From positions 1 to 14,290 of IMG/VR virus record IMGVR_UViG_2778261163_000002: a stretch of 14,290 nucleotides of DNA. The stretch is one strand, 5' to 3'. The notes beneath the pieces were generated by a model, which worked only from the letters and a program-made list of their open reading frames with translations, did no database searches and had not been told where the DNA came from. The first letter of the stretch is position 1; each line of letters starts with the position of its first letter. Shown in pieces: positions 1-14,290 of the stretch. This DNA is from a virus. Its lineage: Duplodnaviria; Heunggongvirae; Uroviricota; Caudoviricetes. The position numbers and the translations under genes were made by a program.

Positions 1-73
1 TGTCCGGCGCACGCACTCCACCTCACCCGTGGAGAACTCCTTAATTACCAACCTTAGCTTCGTTGGTTAGCTA

Positions 74-292
74 TTAACGCGGGTATGTAATCATTCTGGC
101 AATGCTTAATGCCGCTGCTTTTTCCAGCCTCGTGATATCCTGCTCCAGAGCGGACAGATTTTCAGCCTGCTTAGCCCTGGCTTCATTGGCCCATTTCAGA
201 TCCTGCGCTGCATTAATTTTCTGGCGCATCCACTCATAAAGTTCATCATCGGTATAATCTGGCGCGATGATGACGGGTTCTCGTTTCTGCAT
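74..292 (-). CDS. small prophage protein, 72 aa, YdfC-like by size and synteny
   Basis: Intact 72-aa ORF, charged helical composition; GAGG 8 nt upstream of the ATG on the minus strand; third gene downstream of the DicA-like repressor, matching the ydfA(51)-ydfB(42)-ydfC(72) layout of Qin. Family assignment is by size and position only, not sequence recall. Confidence 0.6.
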   Translation of the reverse strand: MQKREPVIIAPDYTDDELYEWMRQKINAAQDLKWANEARAKQAENLSALEQDITRLEKAAALSIARMITYPR

Positions 293-321
293 ACTGATTC
301 CTCGCGGTGTTGCTTCGCTTA

Positions 322-450
322 TCAGCCGTTAGATTTTGCCGAGCTGGAAAGCGCCTGTTTAAACTCACTGAAGCTGAGAGCTTCTTCGCCTTCGGCAAGG
401 CCTTCGAAGTATTCTTCGTAAGCCTTTTCCATGATTGTGTCGAAATCCAT
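322..450 (-). CDS. small acidic protein, 42 aa (MDFDTIMEKAYEEYFEGLAEGEEALSFSEFKQALSSSAKSNG), YdfB-like by size and synteny
   Basis: Hand-translated minus-strand ORF below the 60-aa cutoff of the supplied track; ATG at 450..448 lies 1 nt after the TGA of the upstream gene (TGATATG), with AGGTGG inside the upstream ORF. Confidence 0.45.
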   Translation of the reverse strand: MDFDTIMEKAYEEYFEGLAEGEEALSFSEFKQALSSSAKSNG

Positions 451-451
451 A

Positions 452-607
452 TCACCCACCTGAATTTCTTTCCAGCCAGCGACGCGCTCCAGATTCGGTT
501 TTAAACGTTTTGCTTTTGGTATACGTCATTGCGGTGAACGTACCGTCCTGGTTGGGGAACACGCCACATACCAGAGATTCGCTGTTGCCAAGATTGATAG
601 TATCCAT
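452..607 (-). CDS. small protein, 51 aa from internal ATG (MDTINLGNSESLV...), YdfA-like by size and synteny; ORF extends upstream to 688
   Basis: Minus-strand ORF 452..688; the ATG at 607 is preceded by GAGG with 5-nt spacing and gives 51 aa; the N-terminal extension from 688 looks non-protein-like. Confidence 0.45.
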   Translation of the reverse strand: MDTINLGNSESLVCGVFPNQDGTFTAMTYTKSKTFKTESGARRWLERNSGG

Positions 608-779
608 GCTGACCTCATTTCCCCTTAACGCCGGGGTAGCGGAACAAAAACCTGCTGCATAGTTATTAAAGTTGAACCCTGCCGTCATGTTCTTACGCCT
701 CGGGCTGGCTACTTAACCCCTGACCACTGCCTGGTAACTCGAAGTATTGCCCTGCATTCTGTGGGGCGGGGTGGGTGGC

Positions 780-830
780 AGGTATATAATGTACTTTGCG
801 TTCATTGTTGTAAAGTACTTTTAGTACATT
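780..830 (-). promoter_or_regulatory. candidate promoter/operator for the ydfA-like operon
   Basis: On the minus strand: -35-like TTTACA (complement of 810..815), 17-bp spacer, -10-like CATTAT (complement of 786..791); AATGTACT at 788..795 overlaps the -10 and its reverse complement AGTACATT sits at 823..830. Confidence 0.3.
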
Positions 831-904
831 CTGTGTGTAAAAAAATGAGATGGGATAAAGTGAAGCACAAACCCGGAGGAAGGCGCTACCGGATTTATGC
901 TGGT

Positions 905-1324
905 TTAAGAGGCTTTTTGTTTTTTCTTTCGTGCTAACTCTTCGTAAATTGCATTGTACTTCTGTTTTTTCTCTTCAAGAGTTTTTAAAAGTTCATCTGT
1001 CTCACTGTCAGGGAGCTCGTCCAGAAGGTCAATGATGATTTTTTGTCTTGGATTTAACTCCTGATAGAAACGTACCTGTCCACTTTCTTCTGTATCCTCT
1101 CCCAAAAGATAGGTTGGTGTTGTTCCTATTAGTGTTGCTAATTCCCTTAATTTCTCCCGGCGAGGAATTGTTTCGCCATTAAACCATTTGCTAACCGCTT
1201 TTGGTGTTAATTTCATTCGACGGGCAATTTCTGCCTGCCTTCCATGTTGTTCATAACCAGCGTTTTCACAGGCTAGCGCAAGCCTACTGGCGAACTCTTT
1301 ACGCGCTTTATCTTCATGAACCAT
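905..1324 (-). CDS. XRE-family HTH prophage repressor, DicA/CI-like
   Basis: 139-aa ORF with an N-terminal HTH-like segment (QAEIARRMKLTPKAVSKWFNGE) and an acidic C-terminal region; divergent from the cro-like gene; no Shine-Dalgarno before the ATG, so possibly leaderless. Confidence 0.75.
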   Translation of the reverse strand: MVHEDKARKEFASRLALACENAGYEQHGRQAEIARRMKLTPKAVSKWFNGETIPRREKLRELATLIGTTPTYLLGEDTEESGQVRFYQELNPRQKIIIDLLDELPDSETDELLKTLEEKKQKYNAIYEELARKKKQKAS

Positions 1325-1403
1325 AAGTTCAATGATATTCGCTCTTGAATGTACTGTCAGTTCTGTTATAGCATGTACTCAAAGTTCACATTGTGAGGGT
1401 GAT
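1325..1403. promoter_or_regulatory. immunity-region divergent promoter/operator interval
   Basis: 79-bp gap between divergent repressor and cro-like genes; ATGTACT repeated at 1348..1355 and 1373..1379; inverted repeat TTCAA-N12-TTGAA at about 1328..1349; near-palindrome TCACATTGTGA at 1386..1396. Confidence 0.5.
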
Positions 1404-1658
1404 ATGAACCAGAAAACACTTGAAGATGTAATCAAAACTGTTCGCGTTGCTGTTGTGGCCGACGTTTGTGGTGTCAGCCAAAGAGCAATCTATAAATGGA
1501 TGGATAACGGAAAATTGCCTCGCACAGAATATACCGGCGAAACAAATTACGCTGAAAAAATCGCTCTTGCATCAAACGGATTATTTTCTGCCGATGCAAT
1601 TTTAACTATTGGCAGGAATAAAACTACTACGAAAAAGCTGATGGGAGTTGATTCATGA
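1404..1658 (+). CDS. Cro-like small DNA-binding protein (84 aa)
   Basis: In-frame ATG at 1404 preceded by GAGGGTG with 5-nt spacing; HTH-like segment (VADVCGVSQRAIYKWMDNG); divergent from the repressor; stop overlaps the next start (ATGA). Confidence 0.6.
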   Translation: MNQKTLEDVIKTVRVAVVADVCGVSQRAIYKWMDNGKLPRTEYTGETNYAEKIALASNGLFSADAILTIGRNKTTTKKLMGVDS

Positions 1659-2080
1659 AAATCAAGCATGAACACATCCGCATGGCGATGAATGCCTGGG
1701 CGCATCCGGACGGCGAAAAAGTACCGGCTGCGAAAATTACCAAAGCGTATTTCGAGCTGGGAATGACGTTCCCGGAACTGTATGACGACAGCCATCCGGA
1801 AGCCTTGGCTCGCAATACCCAGAAAATTTTCCGCTGGGTAGAGAAAGACACCCCTGATGCAGTTGAAAAAATTCAGGCGTTGTTACCAGCGATCGAAAAG
1901 GCAATGCCACCTTTGCTGGTGGCCAGAATGCGCAGCCACAGTTCAGCTTATTTTCGGGAGCTGGTGGAGACGCGGGAGCGATTGGTGAGAGACGCTGATG
2001 ATTTTGTCGCAGTGGCAATCGCCGGTTTCAATCAGATGAACCGTGGTGGCCCGGCAGGAAATGCTGTGGCAGTACATTGA
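1655..2080 (+). CDS. YdaT-family protein (CII-like regulator, formerly called a putative toxin)
   Basis: 141-aa ORF starting MKIKHEHI, recalled as the characteristic YdaT N-terminus; position immediately after cro matches racR-ydaS-ydaT synteny. Confidence 0.6.
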   Translation: MKIKHEHIRMAMNAWAHPDGEKVPAAKITKAYFELGMTFPELYDDSHPEALARNTQKIFRWVEKDTPDAVEKIQALLPAIEKAMPPLLVARMRSHSSAYFRELVETRERLVRDADDFVAVAIAGFNQMNRGGPAGNAVAVH

Positions 2081-2151
2081 CTGACAATAGCCATATCGAA
2101 TCGCTTCCGGCAACTCGTGAGTAAAAAGATTCGGTATCAGAAGAGGTGAGT

Positions 2152-3222
2152 ATGGCTAACGCCTGGCTCAGATTATGGCATGACATGCCAAATGACCCTA
2201 AGTGGCGAACAATTGCCAGGGTGTCAGGGCAGCCAATTGCAACAGTGATGGCAGTGTATATCCACCTCCTGGTGAGCGCGTCACGAAATGTCACGCGAGG
2301 TCACATTGATGTCACGACAGAAGATTTGGCAAGTGCGCTCGACGTGACAGAAGAGGTAATTGATTCAATTTTGCAGACGATGCAGGGGCGGGTACTTGAT
2401 GGTGATTTAATCACTGGATGGGAAAAACGCCAGGTGCTTAAAGAGGACAACGGCAATATTTCGCAAACCGCAAAATCTCCTGCAGAGCGCAAGAGGGCGC
2501 AGCGAGAGAGGGAAAGAAAGCAGGAACAAAATGGCGATTGTCACGGCGCGTCACGAAATGTCACGCACATGTCACGACGAGTCACGACAGATAAAGATAC
2601 AGATAAAGATACAGATCAAGAAGATCAAAACACTATGGTCCATGGCGTAAAAAACGCCACGAACCAGGCAGGGGATGTTCAGACCGTCAATCCTGGTCAG
2701 CCAGCAGGCACGACACCGGAAGCCGATTCAGCGTATGCGCTGAAAGCCGATTCGGGCGCTGTGCAGCAGGTGATGACCGCAAGGCCGGAGCAATCACACC
2801 AACTGCAGCAGCCTGAAGCCGATTCCGCCATTCAGCGGGAAGCCGATCGGGTAGTCCCGGAAAACACCGGGCAGCCTGTGGGACGAGTAGATTATCCGGA
2901 TGTGTTCGAACAGGTCTGGCGGGAATACCCGTTGCGTGCTGGGGCAAACCCGAAGAAATCCGCTTTCAGTGCCTGGAAGGCCAGATTACGCGAGGGGGTG
3001 CCACCAGAGGCCATGCTGGATGGTGTGAGGCGTTACGCAAGATACCTGGCGGCTACCGGGAAAACGGGAACGGAATTTGTTCAGCGAGCGACGACGTTTT
3101 TTGGACCGGACCGGAATTTTGAGAACCCTTGGTTGCTCCCGGTAAGCGGCACGAACAACCAGCGTTGTGTGAATCATATTTCTGAACCGGATAACGAAAT
3201 TCCGCCGGGCTTCAGGGGGTAA
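2152..3222 (+). CDS. phage replication initiator / replisome organizer, DUF1376 YdaU-like N-terminal domain
   Basis: ATG at 2152 preceded by AAGAGGTG; N-terminus WLRLWHDMPNDPKWRTIA resembles DUF1376 (recalled); two GTCACG iteron arrays and an acidic DKDTDKDTD linker lie inside the ORF, as with the lambda O gene and its origin. Confidence 0.65.
   Translation: MANAWLRLWHDMPNDPKWRTIARVSGQPIATVMAVYIHLLVSASRNVTRGHIDVTTEDLASALDVTEEVIDSILQTMQGRVLDGDLITGWEKRQVLKEDNGNISQTAKSPAERKRAQRERERKQEQNGDCHGASRNVTHMSRRVTTDKDTDKDTDQEDQNTMVHGVKNATNQAGDVQTVNPGQPAGTTPEADSAYALKADSGAVQQVMTARPEQSHQLQQPEADSAIQREADRVVPENTGQPVGRVDYPDVFEQVWREYPLRAGANPKKSAFSAWKARLREGVPPEAMLDGVRRYARYLAATGKTGTEFVQRATTFFGPDRNFENPWLLPVSGTNNQRCVNHISEPDNEIPPGFRG
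2291..2327. repeat. iteron array A: four direct GTCAC(G/A) repeats at 10/10/11-bp spacing
   Basis: GTCACG at 2291, 2301, 2322 and GTCACA at 2311; an inverted copy CGTGAC at 2354..2359. Confidence 0.7.
2540..2612. repeat. iteron array B (five GTCACG repeats at 10/10/11/10-bp spacing) plus adjacent 12-bp tandem repeat; candidate replication origin
   Basis: GTCACG at 2540, 2550, 2560, 2571, 2581; then AGATAAAGATAC x2 (2589..2612) forming an A-rich stretch; TCACGAAATGTCACG is shared exactly with array A. Confidence 0.7.
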
Positions 3223-3262
3223 GTGTTAATTTCTGGTCATGAGGTAATTTTCAGGAGGGCTT

Positions 3263-3688
3263 GTGGCAAAAGTATTTACACAAGAAGAGCGGGAAAAAAT
3301 TAAGAGGCAGGTTGTTGAACTCGTGCGCCTGAGCGGGCGCGAGACGTTACGACAACTGGAAGCGAAAACAGGTGCGACAAGATATCTGATGAGTGTTCTC
3401 GCCAGAGAGCTGGTTGCCAGTGGCGATGTATACAATTCTGGCTACGGGTTATTCCCGTCTGAACAGGCGCGTAAGGACTGGCAAAATGCCCGCAAAAAAC
3501 TCTCAAGGGCAAAGGTGAAGAAACCTGCAGTGGTTGATCCGGACCTTATCTGGTCGTTACCAGACGGCGAAATACGCCGCTACGACAGGCGCCTGAATAT
3601 AATCTGTCGCGAGTGCCGGAAGAGCGAAGCTATGCAGCGTGTACTGGCATTTTATCAAGGAAATGTTAGGTATTTTAGACGTTACTAG
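3263..3688 (+). CDS. hypothetical protein (141 aa), basic, unknown function
   Basis: GTG start at 3263 preceded by CAGGAGGG; protein-like composition; no family recognised from memory. Confidence 0.55.
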   Translation: MAKVFTQEEREKIKRQVVELVRLSGRETLRQLEAKTGATRYLMSVLARELVASGDVYNSGYGLFPSEQARKDWQNARKKLSRAKVKKPAVVDPDLIWSLPDGEIRRYDRRLNIICRECRKSEAMQRVLAFYQGNVRYFRRY

Positions 3689-3841
3689 ATTAAAGAGCAT
3701 TAGTTCAGATGTGAATTGACATTTTCATGGCGCAGGGTAGAGCCAGCGTGGTTGTCCGCTTTGCGTCAAAACCAGATATTACCAGATTTAGACATATATT
3801 CCCGATAGCCCTGCTCTGATGCTACACTCTGTGCTATTTTC

Positions 3842-4528
3842 ATGACCCCAATAAAAATATTTATGACTATTGCTGATTTCAAACGGCCTAAATTGGAGCT
3901 CCCAAACGGGGCAAACAAACTACTACTGCACTCTTGCTGTGCTCCATGTTCCGGTGAAGTGATGGAGGCGCTTCAGGCCTCGGGAATCGACTACACCATC
4001 TTTTTCTACAACCCGAACATTCATCCTCAGAAAGAGTATTTAATTCGTAAGGATGAAAATATTCGCTTTGCTGAACAACACGGCGTGCCGTTTATCGATG
4101 CTGATTACGACACCGACAACTGGTTTGAACGTGCCAAAGGAATGGAATGGGAGCCTGAGAGGGGGATCCGTTGTACCATGTGTTTTGACATGCGTTTTGA
4201 GCGGACAGCGTTGTACGCTGCTGAAAATGGTTTCAGTGTGATCAGCAGTTCACTGGGCATTTCACGCTGGAAAAATATGCAGCAGGTTAACGAGTGTGGG
4301 CGGCGAGCTGTTGCGCATTATCCGGGTATGGTGTACTGGGATTATAACTGGCGCAAGCAGGGCGGCTCGTCCCGTATGATTGAAATCAGCAAGCGCGAAA
4401 AATTCTATCAGCAGGAATATTGTGGCTGTGTGTATTCTCTGCGCGATACCAATCTACACCGCAAATCTCAGGGACGCCCTCTTATCAAAATTGGCCAACT
4501 CCACTACGGAAAAGAAGAGAAGGAGTGA
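3842..4528 (+). CDS. queH: epoxyqueuosine reductase QueH homolog (DUF208 family)
   Basis: 228-aa ORF with HSCCAPCS near the N-terminus, YNPNIHP, RCxxCF and a C-terminal YCGCVYS motif, recalled as hallmarks of the Fe-S, B12-independent QueH family; start could alternatively be the ATG at 3863. Confidence 0.7.
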
Positions 4529-4765
4529 TTTTATGGATCACCTTTCTGATTGATTTCATATTGGCGAGGTGACGTGAGTTAAGTAGAATGGCTGCGGGTG
4601 CTTGAGGCTATCTGTCTCAGGCATGAACACTGAAAGGCAGATAGAGAAAAGCCCCAGTTAACATTACGCGTCCGGCAAGACGCTTAACATTAATCTGAGG
4701 CTCAATCTATGAACGGCAAATCTAGGTTAGCCTCTTACGTGCCGAAAGGCAAGGAGAAGCAGGCT

Positions 4766-4921
4766 ATGAAGCAGCAAAAGGCGATGTTAATCGCCCTGAT
4801 CGTCATCTGTTTAACCGTCATTGTGACGGCACTGGTAACGAGGAAAGACCTCTGCGAGGTACGAATCCGAACCGGCCAGACGGAGGTCGCTGTCTTCACA
4901 GTCTACGAACCTGAGGAGTAA
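4766..4921 (+). CDS. hokD: Hok/Gef-family type I toxin, HokD (RelF)-like, 51 aa
   Basis: MKQQKAMLIALIVICLTVIVTALVTRKDLCEVRIRTGQTEVAVFTVYEPEE matches the recalled HokD sequence almost exactly; AAGGAG 9 nt upstream; the ORF continues in frame upstream to 4709, which is probably not biological. Confidence 0.8.
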   Translation: MKQQKAMLIALIVICLTVIVTALVTRKDLCEVRIRTGQTEVAVFTVYEPEE

Positions 4922-4991
4922 GAGACTTGGCGAGGGAGAAATCCCTCGCCGCCTCTGATGTGTCAGGCATCCTCAACGCACCCGCACTTAA

Positions 4992-5010
4992 CCCGCTTCG
5001 GCGTTTTTTC
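4992..5010 (+). terminator. rho-independent terminator after hok
   Basis: CCCGC-TTCG-GCG stem-loop followed by TTTTTT. Confidence 0.55.
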
Positions 5011-5064
5011 CGTTGATTAACTCTAGTTATTAGAGAACCGAACTTTTATTGATGGGGCAGGGAG

Positions 5065-5457
5065 ATGAAGAAACTTGTTTTAGTCGCAGGTGTAATGATT
5101 GCAACAGTAATGTTGGGAGGGTGTGCAGCAAAGGTCGATCCAGCGTTGAAAGCAGAAGCAATGAAGCCACTAACATGTAATGATGAAAAGCAATGTGACT
5201 TTTATTGGAAACGAGCGCAATTCTGGTTGGCTAATAATTCCTCATGGAAAATTCAAACGGCGACAGACACGCTAATTTCCACTTATAATCCCTCTCCAAA
5301 TAGTCCATTCCTCGCTTATCAAGTGAGTAAAATGCCAAATGAAGATGGATCCTCAAGAATTTTCATCAAGCCTTTTTGCGATAATATGTTTGGCTGTCAA
5401 CCAAACCCCTATCAGGCAGTTGTTTCCTTTAAAAACTTCGTTAAAACAGGGCAGTAG
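5065..5457 (+). CDS. putative lipoprotein (130 aa), four conserved-looking Cys, unknown function
   Basis: Signal peptide with lipobox LGG-C (MKKLVLVAGVMIATVMLGGC); GGGAG before the ATG; AT-rich codon usage compared with flanking genes; terminators on both sides. Confidence 0.7.
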   Translation: MKKLVLVAGVMIATVMLGGCAAKVDPALKAEAMKPLTCNDEKQCDFYWKRAQFWLANNSSWKIQTATDTLISTYNPSPNSPFLAYQVSKMPNEDGSSRIFIKPFCDNMFGCQPNPYQAVVSFKNFVKTGQ

Positions 5458-5655
5458 TGTATAGCTTGGACGATAAATTATTAGTGAAAACGCCGTAAAC
5501 CCTCACCCAATGTGGACTAAGCCTATCAAACATGACTGTGATGATTAGTCCGTAGTTGTTGCCTATGAAATCTGGATTGAGTCAGGGTTTAATCCAATAA
5601 TTATTCTATCGTTCCTTTACAAGTCCGGTATATTACTTTCAGTTTGTTTTAGCAT

Positions 5656-5681
5656 ACCCGCTTCGGCGGGTTTTGTTTTTT
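5656..5681 (+). terminator. rho-independent terminator
   Basis: CCCGC-TTCG-GCGGG stem-loop followed by TTTTGTTTTTT. Confidence 0.65.
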
Positions 5682-5753
5682 CCTGGCATTCTGGTTTACA
5701 ATTCGCACGCCAGCCTGAACAACTGGCACCTGCTGCGCCAGCAGAGACAACCG

Positions 5754-6032
5754 ATGGCGCACGATACCAAATTACACAATTCTAATGATTCTGCCGTCTT
5801 TGCCAGCAGGCGCGGACGGCGTTTTCACGTATTCAAATCAGACTGGTTCCAGCATCCTCCATGCACTGAAGAGCAGGCGGAATGGATAATTCAGTGTTAC
5901 CGCAGGCGCGGATACGAGGTTAAGAAAGCCCTCAGCCTCGATTATCGTCACTGGATAATCTATGTCAGGCTCCCTTATTCCGAACGCCCACCGCGCCCAT
6001 CCCGCACATACCAGCAACGGATCTGGAGGTAA
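5754..6032 (+). CDS. hypothetical small protein (92 aa from internal ATG), position equivalent to rem in Qin
   Basis: ORF 5673..6032; the upstream part overlaps the terminator, so an internal start is assumed; its stop TAA at 6030 overlaps the GGAGG of the next gene. Start and reality uncertain. Confidence 0.35.
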   Translation: MAHDTKLHNSNDSAVFASRRGRRFHVFKSDWFQHPPCTEEQAEWIIQCYRRRGYEVKKALSLDYRHWIIYVRLPYSERPPRPSRTYQQRIWR

Positions 6033-6033
6033 C

Positions 6034-7089
6034 GTGCGGATATTACTTCGACCTGTTCTGGTACCGGAACTTGGGCTGGTGGTCCTTAGGCCGGGCCGTG
6101 AATCCATGCAAGTATTTCATAACCCTCGAGTGCTGGTGGAGCCTGAACCGAAAAGCATGCGCGGTCTGCCGTCCGGAGTCGTCCCTGCCGTTCGCCAGCC
6201 GCTGGCGGAGGATAAATCATTACTGCCATTTTTCAGCGATGAGCGGGTGATTCGTGCTGCTGGCGGCGCTGGGGCACTGTCTGACTGGCTGTTGCGTCAT
6301 GTCAAATCCTGCCAGTGGCCTCATGGTGACTATCATCACAGTGAAATCGTCATACATCGTTACGGTACCGGCGCGATGGTGTTGTGCTGGCACTGCGACA
6401 ACCAGTTGCGTGACCAGACATCCGAATCACTCGGGCAACTTGCTCATCAAAACCTGTCAGCATGGATGATTGACGTCATACGCCATGCAATGAATGGCAC
6501 GCAGGAGCGGGAATTGTCGCTGGCTGAATTATCCTGGTGGGCGGTCTGCAATCAGGTGGCGGACGCGCTTCCGGAGGCAGTATTACGTCGTTCTCTGGGG
6601 TTACGTGCGGAAAAAATCCGCTCCTTGTACCGCGAAAGCGACATCGTACCGGGAGAGCAGACCGCCACCAGCATACTGAAGCAGCGCACAAAAAATCTTG
6701 CGCCGTTGCCTCATGCCCACCAGCAAAACCCGCCACAGGAAAAGACGGTGGTCAGCATTGCCGTTGATCCGGAGTCACCGGCTCAGTATCTCCAGCGCCA
6801 GAAACCACAACGGGAAGAGATGCCTGTATACACGCGTTGGGTAAAAACGCAGAAATGCATGACGTGCGGTAATCAGGCAGATGATCCGCATCACATCATT
6901 GGTCATGGACTGGGAGGGATGGGAACAAAGGCTGATGATTTGTTTGTTATTCCGCTGTGCCGTAAATGTCATAACGAACTGCACGCCGGGGTAAAAGATT
7001 TTGAAGAAAAACACGGCAGCCAGCTGTTGTTGCTGATTCGTTTTTTAATGCACGCGAGAAATTCGGGTGTCCTGAAGTGGAAAGCATGA
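6034..7089 (+). CDS. DUF968-family protein, YdfU-like, with C-terminal HNH-like Cys/His motif
   Basis: GTG at 6034 preceded by GGAGGT; C-terminus CMTCG...DDPHHIIGHGLGG...CRKCHNELH; the ORF is open upstream to 5962, so the start is uncertain; sits between hok and rusA/Q as in Qin. Confidence 0.65.
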   Translation: MRILLRPVLVPELGLVVLRPGRESMQVFHNPRVLVEPEPKSMRGLPSGVVPAVRQPLAEDKSLLPFFSDERVIRAAGGAGALSDWLLRHVKSCQWPHGDYHHSEIVIHRYGTGAMVLCWHCDNQLRDQTSESLGQLAHQNLSAWMIDVIRHAMNGTQERELSLAELSWWAVCNQVADALPEAVLRRSLGLRAEKIRSLYRESDIVPGEQTATSILKQRTKNLAPLPHAHQQNPPQEKTVVSIAVDPESPAQYLQRQKPQREEMPVYTRWVKTQKCMTCGNQADDPHHIIGHGLGGMGTKADDLFVIPLCRKCHNELHAGVKDFEEKHGSQLLLLIRFLMHARNSGVLKWKA

Positions 7090-7455
7090 ATGACTGAACG
7101 CATAGAATTTGTTTTGCCTTACCCGCCGACGGTGAATACCTACTGGCGACGTCATGGCAATACGTATTTCATCTCGGAGGCCGGAAAGCGTTATCGCCAT
7201 GATGTGGCGCTAATTGTTCGCCAGCAGCGGTTGAAATTAAACCTGTCCGGAAGGCTGGCGATAAAGATTATTGCAGAGCCACCGGATAAGCGCCGTCGTG
7301 ACCTGGACAATATCCTGAAAGCACCACTGGATGCGCTGACGCATGCCGGACTACTCATAGATGACGAGCAGTTTGATGAAATCAATATTGTGCGCGGTCA
7401 GCTCGTTCCTGGTGGGCGGCTGGGGATAAAAATCACAGAACTGGAGTGCGCATGA
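7090..7455 (+). CDS. rusA: RusA Holliday-junction resolvase
   Basis: 121-aa protein with the RRRDLDN motif and overall similarity to recalled RusA; typical nin-region position upstream of Q. Confidence 0.85.
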   Translation: MTERIEFVLPYPPTVNTYWRRHGNTYFISEAGKRYRHDVALIVRQQRLKLNLSGRLAIKIIAEPPDKRRRDLDNILKAPLDALTHAGLLIDDEQFDEINIVRGQLVPGGRLGIKITELECA

Positions 7456-8141
7456 ATAACCAGTATTTACAGTTTGTGCGTGAGCAGCTCATTATCGCCA
7501 CCGCTGATTTGAGTGGGGCAACAAAAGGTCAGCTTGAAGCCTGGCAGGAGAATGCCATGTTCGATACAGGGCGTTACAGGCGTAAAAAAATCCGGTACCG
7601 AGATGAAGTGACCGGAAAAATGATTACGCGGGATAATCCACCAATCCCGGGGAAACAATCGCTGGCGAAGGGGACGTCAATTCCTCTGGTCAGTCCGGTT
7701 GAGTTTTCGACATCATCGTGGCGGCGGGCTGTTCTGTCTCTTGAAGAACATCATAAAGCCTGGTTGTTGTGGTGTTACAGCGGGAGTATTTGTTGGGAAT
7801 ATCAGATCGCGATAACACAGTGGGCGTGGAATGAATTTAATACTCAATCCGGTACCAGAAAAATTGCAGGGAAAACGCAGGAACGCCTGAAAAAATTAAT
7901 CTGGCTGGCGGCGCAGGCATTAAAAGCAGAACTTTTTGGTGGGGAAGGTTATGAATACCAGGAGCTGGCATTACTGGCGGGAGTGACAACTAAAAACTGG
8001 TCCAAAACATTTACTCGTCACTGGGTTGCAATGAAACACATTTTTCACCGACTTGATAGTGAGGCTTTATTGTTTGTAATGAGAACACGTTCAAAACAAA
8101 AGGCGGCATTTTCAAAGCAAAGTGTTGCAAAAGTAGATTGA
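7452..8141 (+). CDS. late-gene antiterminator Q-like protein (QuuQ-type), 229 aa
   Basis: Start ATG overlaps the rusA stop (ATGA); located directly upstream of a promoter/terminator pair, the tRNAs and the lysis genes; no lambda-Q zinc-finger motif, so the call is mainly positional. Confidence 0.55.
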   Translation: MNNQYLQFVREQLIIATADLSGATKGQLEAWQENAMFDTGRYRRKKIRYRDEVTGKMITRDNPPIPGKQSLAKGTSIPLVSPVEFSTSSWRRAVLSLEEHHKAWLLWCYSGSICWEYQIAITQWAWNEFNTQSGTRKIAGKTQERLKKLIWLAAQALKAELFGGEGYEYQELALLAGVTTKNWSKTFTRHWVAMKHIFHRLDSEALLFVMRTRSKQKAAFSKQSVAKVD

Positions 8142-8153
8142 AAGGCATATATT
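8125..8153 (+). promoter_or_regulatory. pR'-like late promoter
   Basis: -35 TTGCAA (8125..8130), 17-bp spacer, -10 TATATT (8148..8153), overlapping the 3' end of the Q-like gene; a terminator lies about 55 nt downstream. Confidence 0.45.
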
Positions 8154-8204
8154 TCATGCAAATCTGATATTTTGCCGATTTTGTACGTGATGGCAAAAGC
8201 AAAC

Positions 8205-8230
8205 AAAACCCGCCCACAAGCGGGTTTTTT
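8205..8230 (+). terminator. tR'-like rho-independent terminator
   Basis: AAAACCCGC-CCACAA-GCGGGTTTT stem-loop followed by a T-run. Confidence 0.65.
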
Positions 8231-8297
8231 GTGCCACTTATCTCGGATAGACATGGTGAATGCGCTGGTGGAGGAGATAAGGGTGATTTTTGAATGC

Positions 8298-8326
8298 TTG
8301 CAACATTGATTTCGTAACGTTATTAT
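8298..8326 (+). promoter_or_regulatory. candidate sigma70 promoter for the tRNA cluster
   Basis: -35 TTGCAA (8298..8303), 17-bp spacer, -10 TATTAT (8321..8326); predicted start about 8333, just before the first tRNA at 8336. Confidence 0.5.
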
Positions 8327-8335
8327 CCTGCGCCC

Positions 8336-8411
8336 GGCCCTTTAGCTCAGTGGTGAGAGCGAGCGACTCATAATCGCCAGGTCGCTGGTTCAAATCCAGC
8401 AAGGGCCACCA
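8336..8411 (+). tRNA. tRNA with anticodon CAT, closest to tRNA-Ile2 (lysidine, ileX/ileZ-like); Met not excluded
   Basis: Cloverleaf folded by hand: acceptor GGCCCTT/AAGGGCC, D arm GCTC/GAGC, anticodon loop CTCATAA, T loop TTCAAAT, encoded CCA; close to recalled E. coli ileX. Confidence 0.8.
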
Positions 8412-8412
8412 G

Positions 8413-8489
8413 CCGCCACTAGCTCATCAGGAAAGAGCGTCAACCCTTTAAGTTGAGTGTGCGAGGTTCGAGTCCCCGATGGCGGTCCA
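8413..8489 (+). tRNA. tRNA-like gene with aberrant features, anticodon loop CCTTTAA (UUU, Lys-like); possible pseudo-tRNA
   Basis: D arm GCTC/GAGC, anticodon stem TCAAC/GTTGA, T loop TTCGAGT, encoded CCA; but C at position 33 instead of the invariant U, a mismatch in the T stem and a mismatch at acceptor pair 7-66. Confidence 0.5.
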
Positions 8490-8491
8490 GT

Positions 8492-8567
<76 letters not shown>

Positions 8568-8570
8568 TAT

Positions 8571-8645
<75 letters not shown>

Positions 8646-8651
8646 GTTAGA

Positions 8652-8697
8652 GTCTTTCAGTCTGCGATGATGGGAAATCCCGGAGTGACTGAAAGAC
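8652..8697. repeat. perfect 11-bp inverted repeat (GTCTTTCAGTC / GACTGAAAGAC) with 24-nt loop
   Basis: Arms at 8652..8662 and 8687..8697 are exact reverse complements; located immediately after the tRNA-Gly gene. Confidence 0.7.
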
Positions 8698-8705
8698 GTT
8701 TAAGT

Positions 8706-8776
8706 TATGAATGATCGCTTTTTTTTGCAAAATTGCTGTGCAGAAATACTAACCTTCGGGCAGGCGATCATTCATA
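8706..8776. repeat. perfect 13-bp inverted repeat (TATGAATGATCGC / GCGATCATTCATA) flanking a 45-bp core
   Basis: Arms at 8706..8718 and 8764..8776; a T9 run follows the left arm. Confidence 0.7.
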
Positions 8777-8852
8777 AGCACTCTGCTTTTATTCCGATTA
8801 ACTGTGGGTGGTTTGTTGGATAGAGTGCTTTCCTTACTGTATATATTGTTTC

Positions 8853-8877
8853 GCCCGCTTTTGCGGGCTTTTCTTTT
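8853..8877 (+). terminator. rho-independent terminator upstream of the holin gene
   Basis: GCCCGC-TTTT-GCGGGC stem-loop followed by TTTTCTTTT. Confidence 0.65.
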
Positions 8878-8937
8878 CAAATCCCTTTCATTTCTCAGTG
8901 TAAAACTACGCCATCCGTTATTTGCGGAGGTGAGGCT

Positions 8938-9153
8938 ATGAAATCCATGGACAAAATTTCAACGGGCATTGCCTATGGCACCTCCGCAGGCAGTGCTGGC
9001 TACTGGTTTTTACAGTGGCTTGATCAGGTCAGTCCGTCACAGTGGGCTGCGATTGGTGTGCTGGGGAGTCTGGTTCTGGGCTTCCTGACTTATCTGACAA
9101 ATCTGTACTTCAAAATCAGAGAAGACAAGCGTAAGGCTGCACGGGGAGAGTAA
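8938..9153 (+). CDS. class II holin / pinholin, phage-21 S-like, dual-start motif MKSM
   Basis: 71-aa protein matching the recalled S21 pinholin; GGAGGTGAGG before the ATG; Met1/Met4 dual start typical of antiholin/holin pairs. Confidence 0.85.
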
Positions 9154-9157
9154 TTCA

Positions 9158-9508
9158 ATGACTCAAAACTATGAACTGATTGTGAAAGGGATCCGCAATT
9201 TTGAGAATAAAGTTACGGTAACTTTAGCGTTACGGGACAAAAAACGCTTTGACGGTGAAATTTTTGACCTGGACATCTCGCTGGACCGTGTTGAAGGTGC
9301 CGCGCTGGAGTTTTATGAGGCAGCAGCCAGAATGAGCATCAGACAGGTCTTCCTGGATGTTGCTGCCGGGTTATGTGAAGGGGATGAGCAGTCGCCGGAA
9401 AAGCGCCCCGTAATTTTAGAGGCGCAGAATGTATGGATAACCTACAAAGGAAAGCTACCGGGAAGAATTACTGGTTCTCTGAAGACTCCTCCGGAATCAC
9501 AACCTTAA
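9158..9508 (+). CDS. hypothetical protein (116 aa) inserted between holin and endolysin
   Basis: ATG 4 nt after the holin stop, GGAGAG 7 nt upstream; no TM segment or signal peptide evident; no family recognised. Confidence 0.55.
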   Translation: MTQNYELIVKGIRNFENKVTVTLALRDKKRFDGEIFDLDISLDRVEGAALEFYEAAARMSIRQVFLDVAAGLCEGDEQSPEKRPVILEAQNVWITYKGKLPGRITGSLKTPPESQP

Positions 9509-9571
9509 GTCACTGACCGGAACAGATAAACCTGTCCGTGGGCAGAAACCGATAAATCCTGATAAATATCC

Positions 9572-10105
9572 ATGAACGCAAAAATCAGATACGGCCTGTC
9601 GGCTGCCGTTCTGGCACTGATTGCCGTCGGTGCGCCCGCGCCTGATATTCTCGACCAGTTTCTGGATGAAAAAGAAGGTAACCACACAACGGCATACCGC
9701 GATGGGTCCGGCATCTGGACCATCTGTCGGGGTGCCACGATGGTGGATGGAAAACCCGTTTTTCCCGGTATGAAACTGTCGAAGGAAAAATGCGACCAGG
9801 TCAACGCCATTGAGCGTGATAAGGCGCTGGCATGGGTGGAGCGCAATATTAAAGTACCACTGACCGAACCACAAAAAGCGGGTATAGCGTCATTCTGTCC
9901 CTATAACATTGGCCCCGGTAAGTGTTTCCCGTCGACGTTTTATAAGCGGCTGAATGCCGGTGATCGTAAGGGCGCATGCGAGGCGATTCGCTGGTGGATA
10001 AAAGATGGTGGGCGCGATTGCCGCATACGTTCAAATAACTGCTATGGACAGGTTATTCGTCGTGACCAGGAAAGCGCATTAGCCTGTTGGGGGATAGAGC
10101 AGTGA
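9572..10105 (+). CDS. SAR endolysin (phage lysozyme, R21-like)
   Basis: N-terminal signal-anchor-release segment [18 protein letters not shown]; overall similarity to recalled phage-21 R; stop overlaps the Rz start. Confidence 0.8.
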
Positions 10106-10563
10106 GCAGAGTCGCCGCGATTATTTATGCTTTGGTTATCTGCATCATCGTCTGCCTGTCGTGGGCGGTCAATCATTACCGTGATAACGCCATCGCCTAC
10201 AAAGAACAGCGTGATAAAAAAGTCAGTGAGCTGAAGCAGGCGATCGCCACCATCGCTGACATGCAACAGCGTCAGCGTGATGTTGCTGCACTCGATGCAA
10301 AGTACTCGAGAGAATTAGCCAATGCGAAAGCTGAAAATGAAACTCTGCGCGCTGATGTTGCCGCTGGTCGTCGTCGGTTGCACATCAAAGCAGTCTGTCA
10401 GTCAGTGCGTGAAGCCACCACCGCCTCCGGCGTGGATAATGCAACCAGCCCCCGACTGGCAGACACCGCTGAACGGGATTATTTCACCCTCAGAGAGAGG
10501 CTGATCACTATGCAAAAACAACTGGAAGGAACCCAGAAGTATATTAATGAGCAGTGCAGATAG
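10102..10563 (+). CDS. Rz: Rz i-spanin
   Basis: GTG start giving MSRVAAII..., near-identical to recalled lambda Rz; N-terminal TM segment; C-terminus ...QKYINEQCR. Confidence 0.85.
10322..10504 (+). CDS. Rz1: Rz1 o-spanin lipoprotein, embedded in Rz in the +1 frame
   Basis: 60-aa ORF with lipobox VVGC and a PPPPP run, near-identical to recalled lambda Rz1. Confidence 0.85.
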
Positions 10564-10594
10564 AGCTGCCCATATCGATGGGCAACTCATGCAA

Positions 10595-10888
10595 TTATTG
10601 TGAGCAATACACACGCGCTTCCAGTGGAGTATAAATGCCTAAAGTAATAAAACCGAGAAATCCATTTACGAATGTTTGCTGGGTTTCTGTTTTAACAACA
10701 TTTTCTGCGCCGCCACAAATTTTGGCTGCATCAACAGTTTTCTCCTGTCCAATTCCCGAAACGAAGAAATGATGGGTGATGGTTTCCTTTGGTGTTACTG
10801 CTGTCGGTTTGTTTCCAACAGTAAACGTCTGTTGAGCACATCCTGTAATAAGCATTGCCAGAGCGGCAGAAAACAACATTTTTTTCAT
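10595..10888 (-). CDS. bor: Bor lipoprotein (serum-resistance, Iss family)
   Basis: 97 aa from MKKML...ITGCAQQTFTV...LEARVYCSQ, near-identical to recalled lambda Bor; start taken at the internal ATG (10888), preceded by AGGA. Confidence 0.85.
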   Translation of the reverse strand: MKKMLFSAALAMLITGCAQQTFTVGNKPTAVTPKETITHHFFVSGIGQEKTVDAAKICGGAENVVKTETQQTFVNGFLGFITLGIYTPLEARVYCSQ

Positions 10889-11068
10889 CTTATTATCCTG
10901 CATTGTTAAAAACGGCAGAATCCTATGTGACAACAATTAAACGATAGTTAAATGGATTGATGAAAATTAAAACTATATAGGTGGATGCTCAGCCTATTGG
11001 AGGTAGTCAGGATTTGAATGTCAGTCTGTTGTCGGCATTCTGGCAATGCAATTTGGATAAAGCGGGGA

Positions 11069-11191
11069 TTAAAAAGATAGAGGCGAGCCGGTCAGGTAGA
11101 AATGAATCAGGCTCAAAGTGAAGCGGAAAAGGTCTGTGGCACAAGCTGATGCAGCCATAATTACAGCCTGATGATTTGTGGAATGAAACAT
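11069..11191 (-). CDS. small ORF, 40 aa (MFHSTNHQAVIMAASACATDLFRFTLSLIHFYLTGSPLSF), hypothetical
   Basis: Hand-translated; AAGGAGGT Shine-Dalgarno 6 nt upstream of the ATG on the minus strand; below the ORF-track cutoff. Confidence 0.35.
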   Translation of the reverse strand: MFHSTNHQAVIMAASACATDLFRFTLSLIHFYLTGSPLSF

Positions 11192-11413
11192 GTTGAACCT
11201 CCTTAATTGATGTTATTCGAGTGATGAAGGCATTCTGTCCTTCTATAGTGTCCAGTAAATCAAACAGGAAACTTGTCCAACGTGTTGGACAAGCCTCTCC
11301 ATTAGTGAGTTGTATTGATCACAACTCTACAAAGAATTCATTACTGGGTAGATGAAAATAGTTTCACTATGAATGGAGGAGGCTATGTCGGTGGCTTCTT
11401 CATTGGAGTACAT

Positions 11414-11764
11414 ATGCCCCCACGAATCCCACGCGCCTGCCGTAAGCGTGGATGTGCAGGTACAACCACAGACAGTTCTGGTTACTGCGATAAACATCGT
11501 GGCGAAGGATGGGTACAGCATCAACGCGGACTGAGCCGCCACCAGCGTGGCTATGGCTCGAAATGGGATGCCATACGTGCGCGCATACTGAAGCGTGATA
11601 ATCATCTGTGTCAGAACTGCCTGCGCAATGGGAGAGCCGTTGAAGCCAGAACTGTGGACCACATCATTCCGAAAGCTCATGGTGGCACGGATGCAGACAG
11701 TAACCTGCAGAGTCTGTGCTGGCCCTGTCATAAAGCAAAAACAGCGCGCGAACGCATCAATTGA
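11414..11764 (+). CDS. HNH endonuclease (packaging-associated)
   Basis: Cys/His motif CQNCL...VDHIIPKAHGG...NLQSLCWPCHKAK; GGAG 5 nt before the ATG at 11414; the ORF is open upstream to 11315 (alternative ATG at 11369); located just upstream of the terminase genes as in HK97-like phages. Confidence 0.75.
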   Translation: MPPRIPRACRKRGCAGTTTDSSGYCDKHRGEGWVQHQRGLSRHQRGYGSKWDAIRARILKRDNHLCQNCLRNGRAVEARTVDHIIPKAHGGTDADSNLQSLCWPCHKAKTARERIN

Positions 11765-11911
11765 TAACAGTTCCCATCTGTAGGGGAGGGGCAGGTCAAA
11801 TCTCTGCAACCCTGGCTGCTCAGTACCGCCGCCTGACCTTTCCTCGCATCGCCGCAGGTTCGAAAACTTTTTTTTGGAATGTGATTAAATGATTGATAGG
11901 TAAAACCGATT

Positions 11912-12394
11912 ATGTCTGGACCCCCGAAAACCCCGCCACGCCTGCATTTGATACGAGGTAACCCCTCAAAGCGGCCAGTTAAAGACTCCAAAAAAACCGC
12001 TAAAAAGGATGAAAAAGGTCTCCCTAAAATTCCGCAACATTTAGGGGCGCAGGGGAAGTACTGGTTCAGGCGAATGGCGGAAGAGCTGAATGCGGAAGGG
12101 ATCATTTCTCAGCTCGATGCACGTGCGCTCGAGTTACTGGTGGAAGCCTACACCGAATACCGGCATCACTGCGAAATACTCGATGTTGAGGGTTATACCT
12201 ACCGCACGGAAACGCAGAATGGCGATGTGCTGATCAAGGCACACCCGGCTGCTGCGATGAAGGCTGATGCCTGGAAGCGGATTCGGGCGATGCTTGCAGA
12301 GTTTGGTATGTCACCGGCAAGCCGGGCGAAAGTAAATACCGCCGGACCGGATGATGTTGATCCGCTGGCAGAGCTTTTAAAAGCGAGAGACTGA
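11912..12394 (+). CDS. terminase small subunit (P27-family-like)
   Basis: 160-aa basic protein directly upstream of and overlapping the large terminase gene (TGATG); recalled similarity to P27-family small terminases. Confidence 0.7.
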   Translation: MSGPPKTPPRLHLIRGNPSKRPVKDSKKTAKKDEKGLPKIPQHLGAQGKYWFRRMAEELNAEGIISQLDARALELLVEAYTEYRHHCEILDVEGYTYRTETQNGDVLIKAHPAAAMKADAWKRIRAMLAEFGMSPASRAKVNTAGPDDVDPLAELLKARD

Positions 12395-14151
12395 TGGCAA
12401 AAGTGGCTGACGGGATCCGCTACGCCGAACGTGTTGTTGCAGGAGAAATTGTTGCTGGCGAATTTGTCCGTCTGGCCTGCCAGCGTTTTCTTGATGATCT
12501 GAAGTACGGCGAAGAGCGGGGGATTTATTTCAGTGAACCTCGTGCACAGCACATCCTTAATTTCTACAAATTTGTACCCCATGTGAAAGGGGCGCTGGCA
12601 GGTCAGCCCATTGAGTTGATGGACTGGCATGTGTTTATCCTCATTAATATTTTTGGTTTTGTCATTCCGCTGGTGAATGAAGAAACCGGGGAAGTTGTCA
12701 TGCGCAGCGATGGCAGTGGACGCCCGGTGATGGTGCGCCGGTTCCGGACAGCATACAACGAAGTTGCCCGTAAAAACGCAAAATCAACCCTGTCATCGGG
12801 TATCGGTCTGTATATGACGGGGGCAGATGGTGAAGGCGGGGCTGAGGTGTATTCAGCCGCAACCACGCGTGACCAGGCCAGAATTGTGTTTGAAGACGCC
12901 AAAAATATGGTCAGAAAAGCCCGGTCGACACTCGGGCGGTTGTTTGATTTCAACAAGCTGGCGATTTACCAGGAGCAGAGCGCATCAAAATTTGAACCGC
13001 TTTCCTCGGATGCAAACAACCTGGACGGTCTGAACATCCACTGCGCCATTATTGATGAGCTGCATGCTCATAAAACCCGTGACGTGTGGGACGTTCTGGA
13101 AACGGCAACCGGTGCCCGTCTGCAGTCTCTGTTATTTGGCATCACCACGGCTGGCTTTAACAAGGAAGGGATTTGCTACGAGCAGCGCGATTACGCCATT
13201 AAGGTATTGCGAGGCTATAACAGCGACGTGGAGGGCGCGGTAAAAGACGACTCCTACTTTGCGATCATTTACACGCTCGATGAGGGAGATGATCCGTTTG
13301 ATGAAACGGTCTGGCAGAAAGCGAATCCTGGCCTGGGCATCTGTAAACGCTGGGATGATCTGCGTCGTCTGGCGAAAAAAGCGAAGGAGCAGGTCTCTGC
13401 GCGGGTGAATTTTTTTACCAAACACATGAATGTGTGGGTCACTGCCGAATCTGCCTGGATGGATATGATTAAGTGGGAGAAGTGCGAATACATTGCTCCA
13501 CAACATGAGCTGAAAACATATCCCATGTGGGTCGGCGTAGACCTTGCTCATAAGATTGATATCTGTGCGGCGGCAAAACTCTGGCGAACCGATAACGGAC
13601 ATGTTCATGCTGATTTTAAATTCTGGCTTCCGGAAGGACGGCTGGAGCGATGCTCGCGGCAGCAGGCAGAACTTTACCGGAAGTGGGCGGAGATGGATAA
13701 GCTCATCCTGACGGATGGTGATGTTATCGATCATGCTCAGATAAAAAGTGACTTACTGGAATGGATTGGCGGTGAAAACCTCAGGGAACTGGGATTTGAC
13801 CCGTGGAGCGCAATGCAGTTCAGCCTGGCACTGGCTGAAGAAGGGATACCGCTGGTGGAGGTTCCGCAGACGGTCCGCAATCTGTCAGAGGCCATGAAGG
13901 AAACGGAATCACTGGTTTATGCCGGGCGTTTCCATCACAGCAATCATCCGGTCATGAACTGGATGATGTCTAACGTTACGGTAAAACCGGACAAAAACGA
14001 CAACATCTTCCCGAATAAATCCACGCCTGAAGCCAAAATCGACGGCCCTGTTGCGCTTTTTACGGCCATGAGCCGCTTTCTGGTAAATGGCGGGGGCGTG
14101 AATGACTTTCTGTCCACGCTTGATCCTGATGAGGACCTGTTAATTCTGTGA
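12394..14151 (+). CDS. terminase large subunit (HK97-like family)
   Basis: 585-aa ORF coupled to the small subunit; size and position typical of large terminases; Walker-like and nuclease motifs not individually verified. Confidence 0.8.
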   Translation: MAKVADGIRYAERVVAGEIVAGEFVRLACQRFLDDLKYGEERGIYFSEPRAQHILNFYKFVPHVKGALAGQPIELMDWHVFILINIFGFVIPLVNEETGEVVMRSDGSGRPVMVRRFRTAYNEVARKNAKSTLSSGIGLYMTGADGEGGAEVYSAATTRDQARIVFEDAKNMVRKARSTLGRLFDFNKLAIYQEQSASKFEPLSSDANNLDGLNIHCAIIDELHAHKTRDVWDVLETATGARLQSLLFGITTAGFNKEGICYEQRDYAIKVLRGYNSDVEGAVKDDSYFAIIYTLDEGDDPFDETVWQKANPGLGICKRWDDLRRLAKKAKEQVSARVNFFTKHMNVWVTAESAWMDMIKWEKCEYIAPQHELKTYPMWVGVDLAHKIDICAAAKLWRTDNGHVHADFKFWLPEGRLERCSRQQAELYRKWAEMDKLILTDGDVIDHAQIKSDLLEWIGGENLRELGFDPWSAMQFSLALAEEGIPLVEVPQTVRNLSEAMKETESLVYAGRFHHSNHPVMNWMMSNVTVKPDKNDNIFPNKSTPEAKIDGPVALFTAMSRFLVNGGGVNDFLSTLDPDEDLLIL

Positions 14152-14290
14152 AACAGCTTATTACCTAGATTCTACGTCAGTACTTCAAAAAGCATAATCA
14201 AAGCCTTGATAAATATGCATTCCTTCGAAATTCAGCTTTCACCCATTGGGTGAAAGAAAAGTGCTCAAAAATATGTTAAATTATCAGCTT

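Follow-up and report, generated by a model that had tools for sequence, protein, structure and literature searches.

A pair of GTCACG repeat arrays inside a phage initiator gene as a probable replication origin in a lambdoid Escherichia coli prophage and its relatives

The window analysed here, the whole 14,290-bp stretch from position 1 to 14,290 of the IMG/VR virus record IMGVR_UViG_2778261163_000002, stems from a lambdoid E. coli prophage and is its immunity-replication region, an early-to-late stretch. Its plus strand carries an open reading frame (ORF) of 356 amino acids (aa), from GTG at 2146 or ATG at 2152 to 3222, for a predicted replication initiator ('replisome organizer'), and within this gene lie two arrays of the hexamer GTCACG. 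The hexamer was present in 14 copies in the window against 5.4 expected, a number not reached in any of 200 shuffles, and nine of the 14 copies fell within 2280-2586, with a maximum of four per 310 bp in 1000 dinucleotide shuffles. Two GTCACG arrays in the initiator gene had been reported in a preliminary description of the sequence; their presence was confirmed far above the shuffle level, while several details had to be revised. Array 1 has four direct iterons on the plus strand (2280-2316), as described, but begins 11 nt before the reported start at 2291, the first iteron having been missed, and one of the four sites carries a mismatch (GTCACG at 2280, 2290 and 2311, GTCACA at 2300). An inverted copy on the minus strand (2343-2348), 32 nt past the last direct copy of array 1, had not been listed. 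Array 2 (2540-2586) consists of five direct GTCACG iterons on the plus strand at 2540, 2550, 2560, 2571 and 2581, for which Tandem Repeats Finder (TRF) reported a period of 10 with 5.0 copies at 2539-2589. The spacing of 10/10/11 bp ascribed to both arrays holds for array 1 and is 10/10/11/10 in array 2. An exact stretch is indeed common to both, but it measures 21 instead of 15 nt: GCGCGTCACGAAATGTCACGC occurs both at 2276-2296 and at 2546-2566, an offset of 270 nt and thus in the same reading frame. Array 1 is located about 230 bp upstream of array 2, both being 130-430 nt into the ORF 2152-3222.

The hexamer occupies all three codon phases (3, 1, 2, 1 in array 1 and 2, 3, 1, 3, 1 in array 2) and is translated differently in each: GTC ACG gives VT, xGT CAC G gives a histidine preceded by C, G or R, and xxG TCA CGx gives SR. 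Thus the repeat belongs to the DNA and the peptide merely mirrors it. Array 1 codes for aa 43-56 (ASRNVTRGHIDVT), comprising the terminal part of helix 3 plus the loop preceding the helix-turn-helix (HTH) of the modelled protein, and array 2 for aa 130-145 at the start of a linker predicted to be disordered. The reverse relation, a peptide repeat (SRNVT...VT) needed by the protein with the DNA periodicity as a by-product, perhaps of an internal duplication, is very improbable. Throughout the family the encoded residues do not vary and the identical 21-nt stretch is in frame in both arrays, as such an explanation would have it, but the three frames yield different peptides (SR, VT, GH/CH), array 2 lies in the predicted disordered segment, and in homologs of another iteron class this place codes for a very different peptide, e.g., NATERGRTQN. 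The explanation was also contradicted by the synonymous sites of homologous genes, where the hexamers are frozen and other invariant residues saturated.

A search with the N-terminal 160 aa retrieved 812 relatives, and a scan of one genome per species yielded 56 loci in gamma-, beta- and alphaproteobacteria, Acidobacteria and one metagenome-assembled genome (MAG) of the Solirubrobacteraceae, with GC contents of 33-68 %. Hosts of the GTCACG class range from Enterobacteriaceae to Bordetella, Pseudomonas and Stenotrophomonas. All loci with at least about 57 % identity had GTCAC at gene nucleotides 129, 139, 149 and 160, some without one of the four, and a second GTCAC block with 3-5 copies at about 370-500 of the gene. 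Eighteen of the 22 loci L002-L024, among them 15 of the 20 loci of the codon analysis, had the inverted copy as GTGAC at nucleotide 193 of the gene (194 in two cases); its conservation is weaker than that of the direct copies. Across these 20 homologs, 109 of 112 neighbouring pairs were spaced by 10-11 bp (10 bp in 84, 11 bp in 25). Iteron copy number shifts in 21-nt, frame-preserving steps: array 2 of the window has a 21-nt insertion of two iterons relative to other homologs, and alleles of E. albertii and E. coli O157 possess six GTCAC in array 1 instead of four. A fixed helical phasing between the two arrays was not observed; their distances of 209-319 bp had no common phase.

The codon alignment comprised 20 loci with pairwise nucleotide identities of 61-87 % and host GC contents of 35-68 %. 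Invariant in the family are S44, N46, V47, T48, R49, G50, H51, V54 and T55 at array 1 and H131, S134, R135, V144 and T145 at array 2, all of them encoded by hexamers save the spacer residues N46 and R49. Codons within the hexamers were fixed, with GTC for V47, ACG for T48, GGT for G50 and GTC for V54 in 20 of 20 loci, CAC for H51 in 19 of 19, TCA for S44 in 19 of 20, and TCA for S134 and GTC for V144 again in 20 of 20. Invariant residues beyond the hexamers were close to synonymous saturation with three to six codons each (six for R7, five for L8), and R49, situated between two hexamers, was encoded by CGA in eight, CGT in five, CGC in six and CGG in one of the loci. The relative codon entropy was 0.10 in the hexamers compared to 0.82 at the other invariant residues (Mann-Whitney p=1e-7), and the TCA and GGT codons were retained even in hosts with 64-68 % GC. 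Synonymous sites that are frozen in the hexamers and saturated elsewhere indicate that both arrays are under purifying selection as DNA.

More distant homologs use other hexamers. At both array places GTCACG is replaced by GTAACG (L023, L027, L033, L040, L041) or by GAACGC (L030, L032, L034, L036, L038, L039, L043, L047-L050, L053, L054), in either case with 10-bp spacing. The two arrays of one genome share the motif class, and the classes follow the lineages of the N-terminal domain. A sharp switch from GTCACG to GTAACG in the subfamily of L023, L025 and L027 was considered and dismissed, as both variants are mixed at homologous sites (GTMACG). In the preliminary description, homologs that replicate without the repeats were named as a finding that would speak against the proposal; homologs without GTCACG do exist, but another hexamer at the same two places supports the iteron reading instead of refuting it. 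The array-1 peptide shifts with the motif class, from SRNVTRGH to NATERGRT, so the loop tolerates whatever the iteron dictates. That this loop determines the specificity was rejected, since L035 and L037 keep the array-2 class with quite different loops and without array 1. Array 2 was present in every classified locus, whereas array 1 was missing in L035, L037 and L052 and is thus dispensable in some lineages. Array 1 appears to be specific to the WLRLWHDMPNDPKWRT subfamily. Two loci, L044 (nt ~320-420 of the initiator gene) and L056 (nt ~320-400), had neither hexamer arrays nor the DKDK repeat and contained CTACGTAG-type repeats instead, together with an inserted segment resembling GIY-YIG (YVYxV...VGIS.NPW.R). 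The duplicated array had been regarded as unusual; on the contrary, a layout with two arrays is the norm from gamma-, beta- and alphaproteobacteria to Acidobacteria.

The motif was also traced independently of the protein. Scanning viral contigs for GTCACG-N4-GTCACG-N4-GTCAC revealed at least 120 loci. Among the matches listed, 84 of 120 arrays were situated in a homolog of the N-terminal domain, most of them with two matches 260-300 bp apart. Many of the other 36 listed lay within linkers of further initiator-like ORFs, with a basic stretch before them and a simple repeat behind, and seven of ten such ORFs tested matched PHROGs for replication initiation, replisome organizer, DnaD-like helicase loader or primosomal protein. 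One of these ORFs also matched the Pfam families Phage_rep_org_N and DnaB_2, and L116, a more distant relative carrying an array, passed the threshold of Phage_rep_org_N. The remaining listed arrays were intergenic and adjoined AT-rich DNA. GTCAC arrays with a 10-bp period look like a common origin signature of the replisome-organizer superfamily. Intergenic GTCAC(G) arrays with 10-bp spacing were encountered without a detectable N-domain homolog in L076 (a giant-virus MAG contig with 25 % GC), L093, L142, L155 and L156; these may be origins of unrelated elements using the same motif.

Array 2 is directly followed by an AT-rich tandem repeat (2587-2630), the proposed DNA-unwinding element, made up of 2.9 copies of ACAGATAAAGAT at 2587-2621 and then GATCAAGAAGATCAAAA, and encoding DKDTDKDTDQEDQN. 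TRF and translation agreed with the earlier observation of a tandem repeat coding for DKDTDKDTD at this place. The 40-bp segment starting at 2590 had a nearest-neighbour free energy of -44.7 compared to a gene mean of -58.7 (standard deviation 3.8); it ranks lowest in duplex stability within the gene and second lowest in the entire 14.3 kb. In most homologous loci (GATAAA)n, (GATACA)n or a similar purine-rich simple repeat directly follows array 2, and it is retained in L018 and L019 from hosts with 66-68 % GC. Two GATC (Dam) sites, 2614-2617 and 2623-2626, are located 9 bp apart within the proposed unwinding element. Many homologs (L006, L008, L012, L014, L023) carry CCCCC-N3-6-CCCCC, e.g., ACCCCCCTAACCCCCCGC, after (GATAAA)n, an element absent from the allele of the window; its different frames in L008 and L012 hint at a further DNA-level element. 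Just right of the AT-rich segment, a terminator-like hairpin on the minus strand (2636-2666) has a 13-bp stem and a T-rich tail and is within shuffle expectation.

An easily melted neighbour is a property of array 2 only, and the absence of a strongly AT-rich flank at array 1, together with its inverted copy, would suit a purely regulatory role. In such a role the arrays would be control sites, to which the initiator or its dimer binds in order to limit its own expression by a transcription roadblock or to pair copies by handcuffing of the P1 incA type, with the unwinding site elsewhere. An inverted copy beside direct iterons is typical of operator sites in iteron plasmids, and of the two P1 arrays, incC and incA, one fires and one controls. 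For both arrays together we consider this unlikely: the least stable, AT-rich simple repeat adjoins array 2 even at 66-68 % host GC, the arrays lie well inside the ORF and away from the promoter, and no other GTCAC cluster exists in the complete genome of a related phage, Tritos. This 46-kb genome, with a 99 % identical gene, was searched for a third, distant cluster in the manner of SPP1 oriR, and the only clusters of at least three GTCAC within 60 bp were the two arrays. For array 1 alone, a control site remains a live option.

The surroundings of the homologous genes are those of a replication module, as judged from gene content. In all 22 loci of the GTCACG class the initiator is the only common ORF family, the next being a generic cI-like HTH family with 17 of 22. 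The gene right after the initiator encodes a lambda-P-type loader (PF06992) in 12 of the 22 loci, and elsewhere an IstB/DnaC-like ATPase (L019) or a DnaB helicase (L015); in L013 an ORF judged from its sequence alone as primase-helicase-like follows.

In Pfam no family was assigned to the initiator at E<=0.01 and none of the lambda O type at E<=10, and the DUF1376 (PF07120) label of the preliminary description was abandoned, there being no Pfam match to it even at E<=10. The only match, to Phage_rep_org_N (PF09681), scored 16.3 bits (E 0.0099) over aa 1-129 and model positions 1-118 of 121, below its gathering threshold of 23.3 bits. PHROG matches were to 'replication initiation protein' families and to 4880 and 5968, two families named 'replisome organizer'. 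An AlphaFold2 model built on 84 sequences presented the N-terminal domain (aa 4-93) as a winged helix with a predicted local distance difference test score (pLDDT) above 90, containing helices 4-14, 16-25, 29-45, 56-63 and 67-77 and a beta wing, followed by a basic helix (aa 110-128), a disordered part (~aa 134-224) and a helical C-terminal domain. The predicted fold is DnaD-N-like, and the gene is read as coding for an initiator of the 'replisome organizer' type. Apart from the iteron-encoded residues, the clearest difference between the motif classes was in a basic region (aa 100-122), and the basic part of the protein at aa 100-128 is a candidate for the DNA reader. The disordered linker is encoded by DNA with a 36-nt direct repeat (2716-2751 and 2812-2847, 75 % identical; PEADSA...(K/E)AD), and GAAGCCGAT-like units occur four times in it. 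In P0056 and the phage records H19-H24 (P. aeruginosa phages phi1, phita81A and others) the annotation gives N-domain and arrays an ORF of their own (~160 aa), with a second 'hypothetical protein' after it. The Pseudomonas initiator may have been split in two genes right past the origin, where modules are exchanged.

The C-terminal 24 aa (333-356, encoded by 3148-3219 on the plus strand), RCVNHISEPDNEIPPGFRG, are a near-identical match to RDINSVSEPDNHIPPGFRG, the C-terminal end of E. coli DnaT. This tail matched NCBIfam NF002770 with E 7e-4 and 19.2 bits, compared to a cut-off of 201, and the PDB entries 6aep (E 0.003), 2ru8 and 9zbt_D. An identification of the entire protein as DnaT (primosomal protein I) was rejected, as just the last 24 aa match and a full-length match to NF002770 or PF17948 was absent; sister alleles of the gene carry the DnaT domain PF17948. 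The C-terminal domain of DnaT docks on PriA (PMC13377028). No helicase-loader gene follows the initiator in the window; by analogy, these 24 residues may instead couple it to the PriA/DnaT primosome of the host or to its helicase-loading machinery, and the phage may borrow this host route.

Taken together, array 2 and the AT-rich repeat probably form the core of a replication origin, with array 1 as a further, auxiliary block serving the same initiator. The GTCACG hexamers would be the iterons of the initiator, embedded in its own coding sequence, and the spacing of one helical turn would align the bound protomers on one face of the DNA. In the core origin array 2 (2540-2586) would act as binding block and the low-stability (ACAGATAAAGAT)n segment (2587-2630) as unwinding element. 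The second block for the same protein, array 1 with its four direct and one inverted copies (2280-2348), would most likely take part in a single nucleoprotein complex, cooperative or looped, by which occupancy of the core is raised, or otherwise serve as a control site by roadblock or handcuffing. The initiator's C-terminal domain would recruit the helicase-loading machinery. Binding of the initiator to the repeats, the start of replication at this place and the role of array 1 were inferred from comparison. The earlier proposal of cis-acting iterons resembling ori-lambda is supported by strong comparative evidence, namely the selection at the DNA level, the covariation of motif and lineage, the unstable duplex and the neighbouring genes.

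Several observations count against this assignment. The comparative tests demonstrate selection at the level of DNA and are blind to the protein that exerts it. The would-be recognition helix of the winged helix (aa 67-77) is acidic and variable, and N-terminal domains of the DnaD type are known chiefly as oligomerisation modules. The AT-rich segment is modest with ~68 % AT over 40 bp, the variable distance between the arrays neither supports nor excludes looping, and many of these prophages may be defective. A description of the origin of this initiator family was not found in the literature, in a search library that was incomplete. The first two points would also suit a different binding protein, either a host factor or a phage regulator such as the upstream CII/YdaT-like or Cro-like protein, the placement in the initiator gene being incidental. 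We regard this as rather improbable, still somewhat less likely than a purely regulatory role of both arrays. The initiator is the sole ORF family in all 22 GTCACG-class loci, the hosts are diverse, from Enterobacteriaceae to Bordetella, Pseudomonas and Stenotrophomonas, and the motif class tracks the lineage of the initiator; a host factor would not explain the three classes GTCACG, GTAACG and GAACGC within related hosts.

The proposal of a core at array 2 with an auxiliary array 1 can be extended, tentatively and with considerable doubt, to a bipartite origin inside the coding sequence. One block in the part coding for a surface loop of the N-domain and one in the linker, ~230 bp apart, would be bridged by the oligomeric DnaD-N-like initiator into a loop that melts the (GATAAA)n repeat. 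In this extension the 10/10/11-bp spacing would step through the three frames, the origin would dictate the invariant residues of the family (SR-VT-GH-VT), and iteron number would change only in steps of 21 or 30 bp. GTCAC arrays with a 10-bp period would then be a general, hitherto undescribed origin signature for phage initiators of the replisome-organizer type in several bacterial phyla and a simple means of annotating phage origins.

Iterons inside an initiator gene are a classical concept. In the lambda origin, O contains four iterons together with an AT-rich region of 39 bp (PMC6022878). As in ori-lambda, the iterons of the window are in the ORF of the initiator, at the junction of the parts for an N-terminal DNA-binding and a C-terminal recruiting domain, with an AT-rich region directly after them, and the prophage position behind cI/cro/cII-like genes as well as the lambda-P-type loader next to the initiator in 12 of 22 related loci correspond to lambda. 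In contrast, lambda has one block with four palindromic 18-bp iterons, each bound by an O dimer, whereas here two blocks of asymmetric direct repeats with a 6-bp core recur every 10-11 bp, the first of them in the part coding for the folded N-domain. Unlike lambda O, the initiator has no Pfam match to O and a DnaD-N-like predicted fold, and it is not followed by a P-like gene in the window. In phage SPP1, G38P binds repeats beside an unwinding element inside gene 38 (oriL), and in addition a second region (PMC5737612). The similarity consists in a replisome-organizer-type initiator with repeated boxes in its own gene, an adjoining AT-rich element and a second block, binding being predicted in the present case. 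However, the second site of SPP1 (oriR) is distant in the genome, while the blocks described here are ~230 bp apart in one gene; moreover, the repeat sequences are unrelated and the present initiator is below the Pfam threshold for Phage_rep_org_N. In iteron plasmids (P1 incC/incA, R6K, F) and at ori/crr of phage P4, one initiator binds two arrays of the same repeat, one at the unwinding site and the other auxiliary or regulatory. The window likewise has two separate arrays of one direct repeat, but in those systems the arrays flank the rep gene or lie kilobases off, the iterons measure ~19-22 bp (8 bp in P4) and the proteins are not homologous; in the prophage both arrays also code for protein. 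The winged-helix N-terminal domains of Bacillus DnaD and DnaB are also among the closest known systems.

Copies of the initiator gene with 98-99 % identity were found in the phages Tritos, Evi, vB_EcoS-689R5 and others, labelled as 'DNA replication protein O', 'replisome organiser' or 'primosomal protein I', and the gene was matched in 2651 of 5426 complete E. coli genomes, usually as 'hypothetical protein'. In the window it is preceded by genes for a cI-like repressor (905-1324, minus strand), a Cro-like HTH protein (1332-1658) and a YdaT/CII-like protein (1655-2080), and followed, without a P-like helicase-loader gene, by a DUF977/Ren-like gene (3263-3688) and QueH (3842-4528); beyond QueH the order is hok/sok, DUF968, RusA, Q, four tRNAs, lysis genes and terminase. 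Rfam detected no RNA family in 2146-3222, and a promoter and terminator scan of 800-3900 gave nothing beyond shuffle expectation, a weak promoter-like match on the minus strand within array 2 included. QueH, an epoxyqueuosine reductase for tRNA modification (Pfam E 1e-65), lies in the nin-like region, and the same phage encodes four tRNAs (8336-8642). A sok antitoxin RNA (4596-4771; Rfam RF01794, 111.9 bits) overlaps a 70-aa ORF (4709-4921), the two being apparently the hok/sok module of the prophage; in Tritos, a HokD toxin is annotated further downstream in the corresponding early region.

No new principle is claimed, but the layout with two blocks is normal in a widespread and so far unstudied family, with relatives of the initiator in prophages of many Proteobacteria and beyond. 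Its origin signature would consist of two blocks with a 6-bp core at helical-turn spacing, the second followed by an AT-rich hexamer repeat. The overlap with the gene would offer a clean example of a DNA-binding-site array that fixes the amino acid sequence of the protein encoded by it. GTCACG, GTAACG and GAACGC would present natural specificity classes for studying the co-evolution of initiators with their sites, and a definition of the origin at the sequence level would allow the origins of such phages and prophages to be annotated from sequence alone.

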